A DNA stretch of 64,000 nucleotides. Source: Escherichia phage WPEC5. The position numbers and the translations under genes were made by a program. The notes beneath the pieces are model-generated. The model ran no database searches, had not been told where the DNA came from, and saw only the letters and a list, made by a program, of their open reading frames with translations. The stretch lies in the sequence record PV654397.1; one strand, given 5' to 3'. Of the stretch, positions 13,704 through 15,021 are shown piece by piece. Position 1 is the first letter of the stretch; each line of letters starts with the position of its first letter.

Positions 13704-13730
13704 AAAATCCCCTTATTGATATTCCATTTA

Positions 13731-13759
13731 AGTATACGTCAAAAACACAACTCAGTCAA
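13731..13759 (-). promoter_or_regulatory. sigma70-type promoter (divergent region)
   Basis: minus strand TTGACT-N17-TATACT, in divergent intergenic region with plus-strand gene 13820..14977. Confidence 0.5.
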
Positions 13760-13819
13760 GGTGCTTTTTTACCTATCTAGAATAAATACGTTATAATAAT
13801 TATACCAATGGAGGGGTGA

Positions 13820-14977
13820 ATGTCAAGATCGATTGCTGCTGCTGGACGATATAAGTTCGGTGAATGTGGTTATATAGTCGATGGTGCAATTCTCAACGAT
13901 GGGACTAAACTCAAAAATGTTCGAATCTATCGTCAGAGAAGCCATAGATTATATGATTTACTTGATCCTGTAAGTAATGTAATTTATCGTAAAGTACAAA
14001 TTACAACAAAGGATATACAAGGATATCAATTAAACTACAACAAAACTAATGACCAAATCCTAAGTGAAATAAGAAAGAACTCTTTTTTCGTAAGAGGATA
14101 CTCAGATGCTAAACTTGAATCAGATCCTACTGGGTTTGTTTATAAGTTTCTTTTGCACAAAACAATTCTAGGTAGTTCACAAACACTATATAATATGTAC
14201 ACCCCTGAATGCGGGATTATAGATAGAGATATAGACAACATCCTTATGTTCCCAACGTTCGTAGGTGATGATTTGGTAGGTGGTCGCCTATTCAACGCAG
14301 GTTCAGCCATTGATACAACTGGAATGCGTATTACCGTTATACTTCCTGACGGAACCGAGTACTTCACAACTGAAATAATTGATGATGTTTTTAGTATTCC
14401 AGTTGATCCAATTACTCAATCCGGTAAAGGAACCATCATACTCACTTCTGACATATATAATACCAAAACTATTGAATTTGATATACTAGAAAACGGCGAA
14501 GATATTGACTTCGTTACTTCAGTACTTCTATCTCAGTTTGAGTACACGTCCGATGGTATGTACATGGCAACTGTACCAGCTACTGTGCATGAGCGTGGTG
14601 AGTATCTTGCTCTACAAGCATACAGTGGTGATTTATTCCAAATTGGAGTAGACCTCATTGTAGATCCTAGCGGTAATATTACTGTGTACCAAACTGATGA
14701 TGCTCCAATCTCATTGAGTATTATTGGTAAAACCTTACACACCACTCCATATCACAACACGTATACTGATAGTGATTGGGTAGATGATGGTGATTCTATG
14801 TACACACTGTCCATTCCTGCCAGTGAACATGGTAAAATCCTCCCACAAGTTCAAGTCTATGCTGAAGACAATCACGTTGTACTAAGTGAAGTTGAACTAG
14901 ATGCCGATGATAATGTTGTATTAAAAGTTGTTGAACCATTTGGCTGTACTGTAGTCATTGTTGGTTATAACGCATAA
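13820..14977 (+). CDS. hypothetical protein (only substantial plus-strand gene; beta-rich)
   Basis: 385-aa ORF filling a 1.3-kb gap devoid of minus-strand ORFs; GGAGG SD 6 nt upstream of ATG; bidirectional terminator immediately downstream. Confidence 0.7.
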   Translation: MSRSIAAAGRYKFGECGYIVDGAILNDGTKLKNVRIYRQRSHRLYDLLDPVSNVIYRKVQITTKDIQGYQLNYNKTNDQILSEIRKNSFFVRGYSDAKLESDPTGFVYKFLLHKTILGSSQTLYNMYTPECGIIDRDIDNILMFPTFVGDDLVGGRLFNAGSAIDTTGMRITVILPDGTEYFTTEIIDDVFSIPVDPITQSGKGTIILTSDIYNTKTIEFDILENGEDIDFVTSVLLSQFEYTSDGMYMATVPATVHERGEYLALQAYSGDLFQIGVDLIVDPSGNITVYQTDDAPISLSIIGKTLHTTPYHNTYTDSDWVDDGDSMYTLSIPASEHGKILPQVQVYAEDNHVVLSEVELDADDNVVLKVVEPFGCTVVIVGYNA

Positions 14978-14978
14978 C

Positions 14979-15012
14979 AAAAAAGCCACTACATTGTAGT
15001 GGCTTTTCTTTT
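14979..15012. terminator. bidirectional rho-independent terminator
   Basis: A6-GCCACTACA-T-TGTAGTGGC-T4CT4: perfect hairpin flanked by A-run and T-run, between convergent genes 13820..14977 (+) and 15022..15837 (-). Confidence 0.75.
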
Positions 15013-15021
15013 ATCTATATC

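Follow-up and report, generated by a model that had tools for sequence, protein, structure and literature searches.

A lone plus-strand gene in an Asteriusvirus genome: relatives of an Ig-domain virion protein and a predicted late control region

Why does a single gene point rightward in a region whose other substantial genes all lie on the opposite strand, and when and for what might its product be made? We addressed this question in a stretch of phage DNA of 64 kb, hereafter the window. As the initial annotation had described, one isolated plus-strand gene stands among minus-strand genes: our ORF scan returned the ORF 13820..14977 (+), which starts with ATG, ends with the stop codon TAA (14975..14977) and encodes 385 aa, as the lone substantial plus-strand gene. 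All other plus-strand ORFs of at least 100 aa in the 64-kb window lie inside, or mostly overlap, a longer minus-strand ORF, and the annotation of phage WPEC3 lists just six extra plus-strand CDS of 33–63 aa, located in gaps. The window belongs to a 121Q/PBECO4-like jumbo coliphage (Asteriusvirus) with a DNA identity of 99.5% to WPEC3 and 77% to 121Q, and its copy of the gene falls into the WPEC3/fEgEco12 sub-clade. To the left the gene is flanked by a divergent neighbour at 13119..13703 (-) (194 aa, phrog_16175), annotated as ‘putative endonuclease’ in fEgEco12, and to the right by a convergent neighbour at 15022..15837 (-) (271 aa, phrog_14991). The latter is a virion protein as well, its phAPEC6 counterpart gp078c having been detected by mass spectrometry with 4 peptides (21.4% coverage). 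We found no paralogue of the 385-aa protein within the window, and Rfam gave no match at the locus and tRNAs only elsewhere in the window. The reading we favour, with a probability of about 0.75, is that the gene encodes a virion protein composed of an N-terminal module and three Ig-like domains and that it forms a late island, insulated from the early region around it.

The nature of the product is best approached through its relatives. Residues 1–384 of the protein align with positions 1–384 of the 384 in the profile of PHROG 10468 (E = 8.3e-157), a family that contains the orthologues 121Q gp155, phAPEC6 gp077, CBB_496 and GAP32_475. Over the full length, protein identity amounts to 75% for 121Q and phAPEC6 and to ~40% for CBB and GAP32. 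121Q gp155 is annotated as ‘structural protein, Ig-domain’, phAPEC6 gp077 was found in virions by ESI-MS/MS with 10 unique peptides (37.8% coverage), and CBB_496 appears as a structural protein in the CBB list, the supplementary table giving it ‘Yes’ entries. The published cryo-EM densities of phAPEC6 have no gene products assigned to them. By homology to these orthologues, from which presence in the virion is known, the product is predicted to be a virion protein in a jumbo myovirus of the 121Q type; an earlier guess at a structural protein is thus supported by phAPEC6 gp077 (mass spectrometry) and CBB_496 (structural list).

Next, we considered the fold. The AlphaFold (AF2) model has a pLDDT of 84.7 and is essentially all-beta, therefore the description of the protein as beta-rich holds. 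The model divides into an N-terminal module (aa 1–135, 13820..14224 (+)) with an SH3-like small beta-barrel core, the best conserved portion of the protein, and three predicted Ig-like beta-sandwich domains (aa 136–228, 229–305 and 306–385; 14225..14974 (+)); pLDDT is ~90 over residues 140–385. A Foldseek search yielded 28 PDB matches at E ≤1e-3, all of them tandem Ig arrays, and the matches of the Ig domains include SiiE BIg (2yn3, E = 2.8e-5), filamin and Sap, besides Ig proteins from the same phage group. In the predicted structure the three domains can be superposed on tandem Ig-like domains, and the Ig-like guess of the initial annotation agrees with this model. The sequence itself matched zero Pfam families at E up to 1, Big_2 and other Ig families included, and a search of PDB sequences, run once with the protein itself and once with the profile of its family, returned noise only (E ≥0.1). 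T4 Hoc (highly immunogenic outer capsid protein) consists of a small anchor and three Ig-like domains, the anchor being C-terminal. The gene product resembles Hoc and other phage decoration proteins with Ig domains as a virion protein with an anchor and three Ig-like domains of which the Ig domains are the faster-evolving part, but its non-Ig conserved module is N-terminal while that of Hoc is C-terminal; the Pfam and PDB sequence searches gave no match that would place it in the T4 Hoc family. By analogy, the Ig domains may be displayed on the particle surface in the style of a Hoc-like decoration or adhesion protein.

The protein could instead belong to the core of the tail, as a ‘major tail protein’ or a tube-associated one, and not a surface decoration or adhesin. 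Relatives that share the Ig domains are annotated as ‘major tail protein’ (CBB_112 and a protein of Erwinia phage Kaldavass), and the PHROG matches of proteins with the N-terminal module include ‘major tail protein’ families. However, these annotations derive from Big_2 domains of the type found at the C terminus of lambda gpV and not from a tube fold, and the N-terminal module is like small SH3/Tudor barrels and unlike tail-tube proteins. Moreover, the phages in question are myoviruses with separate sheath and T4-like tail genes, and a variable number of Ig repeats suits a display protein better than a lattice-forming one. We consider a core tail role unlikely for these reasons and retain the surface-displayed virion protein as the preferred reading.

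To evaluate the timing of expression we analyzed the control region upstream of the gene. The strong Shine–Dalgarno sequence claimed initially is the GGAGGGG at 13810..13816 (+), 3 nt before the ATG, and a G-rich Shine–Dalgarno sequence is kept in the orthologous leaders. Further upstream an ATAAATA core, a predicted T4-type late promoter, lies at 13782..13788 (+), 38 nt before the ATG, with a putative transcription start near 13795. T4 late promoters have the consensus TATAAATA and are read by gp55 together with gp33 and the gp45 clamp. The sequence AATAAATA at 13781–13788 matches this consensus in 7 of 8 positions, the first T missing. The element resembles T4 late promoters in being an AT-rich -10-like motif that stands 30–60 nt before the start codons of structural genes without a -35 element, and in being accompanied by a phage gp55-type sigma factor; it differs in its core, which is [A/C/G]TAAATA here, the first T being dispensable. 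ATAAATA is also the published predicted late-promoter motif of the phage group (CBB, GAP32), and a late promoter of the CBB orthologue itself has been published as Porf_496.

The distribution of the motif argues for a real signal. The copy at 13782–13788 is the sole plus-strand ATAAATA in the 64 kb, where we observed 11 occurrences of the motif compared to 35.1 ± 7.0 expected, and 8 loci spread over three genera keep the element between -31 and -42. Across the phAPEC6 genome the motif is ~3.5-fold rarer than expected, and yet it precedes 20 of the 60 virion genes verified by mass spectrometry compared to 13 of the 391 others (OR 14.5, p = 2.2e-11), while the antisense control gave 2/60 and 5/391; the major capsid and sheath genes are among those with a site in phAPEC6. 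Roughly a third to half of the virion genes verified by mass spectrometry carry the motif, and so do 13 non-virion genes. No [ACG]TAAATA was observed upstream of the convergent neighbour 15022..15837. Orientation alone is no guide to timing; virion genes with the late motif also occur among the minus-strand genes of this region. In phAPEC6 we found past the ATAAATA core a weak A preference at +12 only, and we therefore do not claim a second promoter element.

A candidate for reading such promoters is encoded by the phages themselves. The gp55-type sigma factor phAPEC6 gp237c matches phrog_12791 (E = 3e-154) and phrog_234 (E = 8e-18), shows 26–31% identity to cyanophage gp55, and has a copy that is 95.7% identical in BF17, which falls into the same sub-clade as the window; the sigma factor gene is located beyond the 64-kb stretch. 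The CBB authors did not find homologues of gp33 and gp45. The fEgEco12, Sharanji and phAPEC6 papers report no transcriptome or transcription start site data. In PA5oct, the only relative with RNA-seq, an orthologue is not detectable, and the PA5oct paper reports sigma70-like promoters only; the RaK2 paper contains no promoter analysis, and the ONT-cappable-seq paper on Pseudomonas phages deals with phages other than the Asteriusvirus/Mimasvirus/Eneladusvirus group. On the basis of the motif statistics and the analogy to T4, the gene is probably switched on late in infection. The likely late, separate control proposed in the initial annotation is thus supported by a motif that is published, kept in three genera and enriched before phAPEC6 virion genes, as far as the T4 analogy carries.

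The same intergenic stretch contains two promoters that point in the other direction. P1, the proximal leftward sigma70-type promoter at 13731..13759 (-), reads TTGACT-17-TATACT (10/12); in the window, 121Q, A4, CBB, GAP32 and Yen9-04 this site holds a 10–12/12 promoter whose -10 ends 25–28 nt before the leftward ATG, and the CBB paper lists its equivalent as the RpoD-like Porf_497. P2, the distal leftward sigma70 promoter at 13799..13826 (-), is a perfect consensus (TTGACA-16-TGgTATAAT, 12/12 with extended TG). Its -35 hexamer coincides with codons 1–3 of the plus-strand gene and its -10 lies inside the leader of that gene, the -10 ending 94–95 nt before the leftward ATG in the window, 121Q, CBB and Yen9-04. 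By their RpoD-type consensus and conserved position both P1 and P2 qualify as leftward early promoters. The first gene they serve is 13119..13703 (-), whose orthologue adjoins the plus-strand gene in divergent orientation in 6 of 6 compared phages. In Asteriusvirus the spacer is shorter by ~60 nt, and therefore P2 overlaps the start codon.

On the plus strand the picture differs. The weak -35/-10 pair mentioned in the initial annotation does exist as TTTACC-18-TATAAT at 13768..13797 (+), a 10/12 match, but such sites occur at chance frequency (16 of this quality compared to 16.3 expected in 4 kb) and the pair is unconserved in the other genera, so that we rejected it as a plus-strand sigma70-like promoter. 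If it were functional, host sigma70 polymerase would express the gene early or constitutively and the ATAAATA would be incidental. Besides the 10/12 match itself, this reading can draw on the TATAAT hexamer at 13792–13797, which is common to the window, 121Q and CBB. However, the -35-like hexamer is unconserved even in 121Q, a plus-strand promoter of at least 10/12 is absent from A4, CBB, GAP32 and Yen9-04, and among the strong sigma70 promoters of the window (at least 11/12) we counted 35 on the minus strand and 0 on the plus strand, with ~2 expected per strand. The ATAAATA, by comparison, is kept in 8/8 loci and statistically tied to virion genes. Expression driven by sigma70 therefore seems improbable to us, and we continue with the predicted late promoter.

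Downstream of the gene we examined the hairpin at 14981..15007, a perfect 12-bp stem with a 3-nt loop between the convergent genes, which is flanked by an A-run before and a T-run after it. On the plus strand it folds with -16.2 kcal/mol (z -5.2) and is followed by the U-tract UUUUCUUUU; on the minus strand the values are -20.0 kcal/mol (z -5.9) and the U-tract is UUUUUUGUU. With a stable GC hairpin and a U-tract on both strands it is predicted to act as a bidirectional Rho-independent terminator, in line with the ‘perfect bidirectional terminator’ proposed before. Phage A4 carries a hairpin with another stem sequence and the same architecture, a compensatory change. Judged from its GC-cored hairpin, A-run and T-run, the structure would appear to be like the ordinary bidirectional terminators that separate convergent genes in bacteria or phages, with nothing unusual about it. 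In the orthologous loci of Mimasvirus and Eneladusvirus no hairpin follows the gene; insulation by a terminator is therefore not universal.

These elements can be combined into a working model of the locus. Host RNA polymerase would transcribe the long surrounding early region leftward, starting at its many near-consensus sigma70 promoters. Later, a phage gp55-like sigma with host core polymerase would read the late promoter, and rightward transcription would proceed from the ATAAATA at 13782–13788 with a start near 13795. The transcript would be translated from the strong Shine–Dalgarno sequence and would end at the hairpin 14981–15007. On the other strand the same hairpin may halt early transcripts heading leftward, which would otherwise cross the gene in antisense, and P2 (13826→13799) and P1 (13759→13731) may set early transcription going again for the genes on the left side. 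With the leftward stop on one side and the restart on the other, the gene would stand as a late unit shielded from the surrounding early transcription. Our observations comprise the ORF, the motifs with their conservation and statistics, the occurrence of orthologues in virions and the predicted fold; the late timing, the sigma factor used, the logic of insulation, and the position and role of the protein in the virion are what we infer here.

An opposite orientation may also suggest a foreign origin, and the initial annotation had raised a horizontally acquired cassette (moron) that would have brought its own promoter and terminator. The promoter-like elements and the terminator that belong to the gene would fit such a cassette, as would its orientation opposite to all neighbours and a slightly raised GC of 0.39–0.40 in its 3' half. 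However, the gene, its orientation and both flanking genes are kept in 121Q, phAPEC6, A4, CBB, GAP32 and fHe-Yen9-04, a set that spans Asteriusvirus, Mimasvirus and Eneladusvirus at 40–75% protein identity, and this conservation over three genera largely refutes the proposal. The base composition is ordinary as well, the GC of the gene staying inside the range of the window; the family is restricted to the Rak2-like phage group, with paralogues of the N-terminal module in the same genomes, and its promoter carries the late motif native to the phage. Acquisition as a cassette is thus very improbable, and we keep to our main reading of the locus. In Mimasvirus and Eneladusvirus a tRNA methyltransferase gene is inserted downstream of the plus-strand gene.

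The observation that started this analysis is real but largely known, as the gene is already catalogued as an Ig-domain virion protein. As originally stated it has little consequence, since the mass spectrometry of the orthologues and the CBB late-promoter table are already published. What our analysis adds is a quantitative test at the genus level, in which ATAAATA shows the distribution of a genuine late promoter (depleted overall, enriched before virion genes verified by mass spectrometry), and the description of a compact control region where the predicted late promoter and the start codon are overlapped by a conserved pair of leftward early promoters. A third addition is the recurrent N-terminal module, which probably docks variable Ig arrays on the particle.

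In order to gain further insights into this module we compared the proteins that carry it. It is N-terminal in every carrier protein, the carriers ranging from 124 to 1859 aa, and it is combined with Big_2 (x2–7), Invasin_D3/Big_1 or HYDIN-like Ig domains. It resembles small SH3/Tudor-like barrels and has diverged less than the Ig domains, which evolve faster; we regard it as a putative virion-docking domain. A paralogue that consists of the module only, phAPEC6 gp347, was detected in phAPEC6 virions by mass spectrometry with 75% coverage. This protein (PHROG 33171) is homologous to the N-terminal 125 aa of the gene product (33% identity, E = 2e-16), and its gene is likewise an isolated plus-strand gene among minus-strand genes, with TATAAATA upstream and a bidirectional terminator. 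It differs from the gene 13820..14977 in being without Ig-like domains and in the distance of its late motif, 195 nt upstream compared to 38. More tentatively, and with considerable doubt on our side, the module, of ~120 aa, might be a dedicated docking domain of the Rak2-like jumbo phages that tethers Ig arrays of variable length, the family might supply structures of phAPEC6, CBB and 121Q that are as yet unassigned, and its genes might be placed deliberately as insulated inverted late islands. The arrays concerned would then number none (gp347), three (the gene 13820..14977) or seven or more Big_2 domains, in proteins of up to 1859 aa, and the candidate structures would be the ‘hairy’ whiskers, the fibre-anchoring densities, or collar or capsid decorations. 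In any case the module gives a tangible starting point for working out which proteins form the so far unexplained hairs and decorations on these giant phages. The inverted, terminator-insulated layout inside early regions is common to gp077 and gp347.

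We investigated the 385-aa ORF that begins with an ATG on the plus strand at 13820..14977 (the rightward gene). The window holds 94 ORFs of at least 100 aa, and the remaining plus-strand ones lie within or largely overlap a longer minus-strand ORF, and in WPEC3, a phage that is nearly identical, just six further plus-strand CDS are annotated, all of them tiny and in gaps. From this we concluded that it is the sole substantial rightward gene in 64 kb, as the initial annotation had stated, and a sequence check of the upstream spacer and the downstream region recovered every element listed there. 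The DNA of the region is 99.1–99.5% identical to Escherichia phages WPEC3, fEgEco12, Ecwhy_1 and EC.P1 and 77% identical to 121Q, PBECO4 and phAPEC6 (Asteriusvirus), which are jumbo myoviruses of ~350–385 kb. Orthologues are 121Q gp155 (annotated ‘virion structural protein; structural protein, Ig-domain’), fEgEco12 g507 (‘structural protein’) and phAPEC6 gp077. ESI-MS/MS of purified phAPEC6 virions detected 10 unique peptides of gp077 (42.88 kDa), covering 37.8% of the protein (PMC7247149). The orthologue CBB_496 is listed as a ‘Structural protein’ with ‘Yes’ entries in a supplementary table, and the supplement ties it to GAP32_475 and a RaK2 ‘putative structural protein’ (PMC5259590). The gene, its virion association, the Ig annotation and the late motif before the CBB orthologue are all on record in the literature and databases; our analysis adds the late-motif statistics, the conserved overlapping promoter layout and the recognition of a putative N-terminal docking module.

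The protein matched no Pfam family, but PHROG 10468 was matched over its full length (E = 8e-157). An AlphaFold2 model built with a 14-member family alignment (overall pLDDT 84.7) predicted an N-terminal region of moderate confidence (~17–127) and three beta-sandwich domains (Ig1–Ig3, ~140–225, 232–302 and 311–384, pLDDT ~90). Foldseek returned only tandem Ig-like arrays from the PDB (SiiE BIg, filamin, the Sap S-layer protein and adhesins) and, among viral models, the orthologue followed by further Ig proteins from this phage group. The predicted structure thus agrees with the beta-rich character noted initially and supports the guess of an Ig-like protein. Compared to GAP32, the N-terminal ~135 aa (N-module) show 53% identity versus 34–36% for the Ig domains. 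The 197 matches of an exhaustive profile search can be separated into modules: the N-module begins at residue 1 in every case, in proteins of 124 to 1859 aa, and is combined with two to seven Big_2, with Invasin_D3/Big_1 or with HYDIN-like Ig domains; Ig1-like domains occur in up to 20 repeats in giant proteins, and the Ig2–Ig3 pair is found at the end of ~290-aa proteins. We infer that the N-module would dock on the particle and the Ig array would be displayed, as in Hoc-like proteins, although the domain order is reversed in the 385-aa protein. The phAPEC6 cryo-EM paper describes several densities without an assigned gene product, namely a capsid decoration protein, a hexamer-centre fibre-anchoring protein, hairy fibres, and collar and distal-tail decorations. 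Some proteins combining the N-module with Big_2 match, from residue 1–3, positions 240–460 of PHROG 3575 (‘major tail protein’, 461 positions), which suggests that this family holds an internal N-module copy or a fused gene model.

The 116-bp spacer (13704–13819) contains a plus-strand SD sequence, GGAGGGG (13810–13816), and the element ATAAATA (13782–13788), both inside the stretch originally reported (13704–15021). For this phage group, three classes of promoter were predicted in the CBB paper (RpoD-like early, TGAAACG/TATA, and ATAAATA before structural genes), which compared the last to TATAAATA, the late promoter of T4. Supplementary Table S7 of that paper gives Porf_496, ATAAATACTTTATA, as the promoter of the orthologue itself, and Porf_497, of the divergent neighbour, is among the RpoD-like promoters in the supplementary list. 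We observed ATAAATA 31–42 nt before the ATG in 8 of 8 loci from three genera, with spacers otherwise diverged. In the window the motif is rarer than expected (11 versus 35.1 ± 7.0), and its single plus-strand copy precedes the sole plus-strand gene. For a genome-wide test we used the assembled 0–300 kb of phAPEC6, with 52 copies versus 170–196 expected, and searched 10–80 nt upstream on the coding strand. The motif was present at 20 of 60 MS-verified virion genes, among them those encoding the major capsid and tail-sheath proteins and one baseplate protein, versus just 13 of the 391 remaining predicted genes (odds ratio 14.5, p = 2.2e-11 by Fisher's test). Loosening the motif to [ACG]TAAATA gave 28/60 versus 29/391 (p = 5.6e-13), and the antisense control 2/60 and 5/391. 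A gp55-type late sigma factor is found in the genus: phAPEC6 gp237c matches phrog_12791 (E = 3e-154), is 26–31% identical to cyanophage gp55 and has a 95.7% identical copy in BF17, from the window's own sub-clade. Taken together, the virion orthologues, the Ig fold and the conserved, enriched late motif uphold the main reading of the initial annotation, that the gene probably encodes a late, structural Ig-like protein. A further sigma70-family factor lies at 8077–9045 (−, phrog_351), annotated in phAPEC6 as a sigma-70 subunit of the RpoD subfamily and in WPEC3 as ‘sigma factor FliA’; it differs from the gp55-like late one and is a candidate reader of the middle-promoter class of CBB.

The initial annotation had also proposed a weak −35/−10 upstream, a horizontally acquired cassette, and opposite orientation as a sign of timing. 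A plus-strand sigma70-like match is indeed present (TTTACC-18-TATAAT, 10/12, 13768–13797), but matches of such quality occur at chance level (16 versus 16.3 expected, 4 kb) and none of the relatives compared conserves it, so that we rejected it as a promoter. By tblastn the gene was found in 61 phage records, every one a jumbo phage >300 kb and mostly of named Rak2-like genera (Asteriusvirus; Mimasvirus GAP32/CBB; Eneladusvirus fHe-Yen9-04; relatives from Erwinia, Serratia, Salmonella and Xanthomonas). In all six phages inspected for synteny (121Q, phAPEC6, A4, CBB, GAP32 and fHe-Yen9-04) the orthologue is opposite to its neighbours and its divergent partner is the same 190–194-aa gene; the inspected records that give product names all have a ‘virion structural protein’ gene downstream. 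Because this synteny is kept and the GC content at the gene (0.33–0.40) is inside the local range, the horizontal-cassette reading was rejected. The divergent partner in the window (13119–13703, −, 194 aa, phrog_16175) is annotated as a ‘putative endonuclease’ in fEgEco12; in Pfam it matches NOV_C alone, below threshold (E = 0.066). Orientation by itself proved uninformative about timing, since late-motif virion genes lie on the minus strand too: TATAAATA occurs at 58518–58525 (−) before the 807-aa orthologue (ORF 56084–58507) of phAPEC6 gp158c (MS-verified, 90 kDa). The true start of this ORF is probably a later ATG, because its longest-ORF start is just 12 nt past the motif and the phAPEC6 start is 33 nt further. 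The convergent neighbour (15022–15837, −), which runs in the direction of the early genes, is a virion protein by its counterpart gp078c (4 peptides in virion ESI-MS/MS; PMC7247149). We found no late motif upstream of it; an 11/12 sigma70-like promoter, TTGACA-18-TATTAT, lies within its CDS (15591–15620, −).

Sigma70 promoters of at least 11/12 number 35 on the minus strand of the window (11 perfect 12/12) and 0 on the plus strand, with ~2 per strand expected, which marks the whole window as a leftward early region driven by host RNAP. Five tRNA genes cluster at 20787–25365 (−); in the WPEC3 annotation, small ORFs and a gene for an HNH endonuclease are scattered between them. Two leftward promoters lie in the spacer, P1 (TTGACT-17-TATACT, 13759→13731, −) and P2 (TTGACA-16-TGgTATAAT, 12/12, 13826→13799, −), the −35 hexamer of P2 coinciding with codons 1–3 of the rightward gene. 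P1 is 25–28 nt from the ATG of the leftward gene in 6 of 6 lineages, and P2 94–95 nt in the window, 121Q, CBB and fHe-Yen9-04. In Asteriusvirus the P2 −35 is the rightward gene's own ATG-TCA-AGA, while in CBB and fHe-Yen9-04 P2, which includes the near-identical string GGGGGTGAAAATGTCAAGA, lies ~60 nt upstream of the start at equal distance from the leftward ATG; P2 of Asteriusvirus thus looks as if it had the late promoter and the RBS ‘telescoped’ into it. The bidirectional terminator proposed downstream was also supported: a perfect 12-bp stem with a 3-nt loop (14981–15007), an A-run on one side and a T-run on the other, begins 4 nt past the stop codon, folds on both strands (−16.2 kcal/mol, z −5.2; −20.0 kcal/mol, z −5.9) and is followed by a U-tract in both RNAs. 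The most economical reading, we infer, would be a four-step early/late insulation: inverted orientation would spare the gene early read-through transcription, the hairpin would halt leftward early transcripts before they pass antisense through it, P2 and P1 would resume leftward transcription, and the late promoter would transcribe the gene when the late sigma factor is present.

The layout is echoed in phAPEC6 by gp347 (PHROG 33171), a 125-aa paralogue that consists of the N-module only (33% identity, E = 2e-16) and reaches 75% MS coverage in virions. It is a lone plus-strand gene between minus-strand genes (MK817115, 260690–261067); TATAAATA lies 195 nt before it, and a bidirectional hairpin, AAAAAAGGAGCCTTGTGGCTCCTTTTTTT, directly follows its stop codon. 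An unannotated 307-aa ORF of the same phage (MK817115, 188011–188934, +), between gp253 and the tail-fibre gene gp256, carries a domain pair homologous to Ig2–Ig3 (E = 2e-15 and 2e-13).
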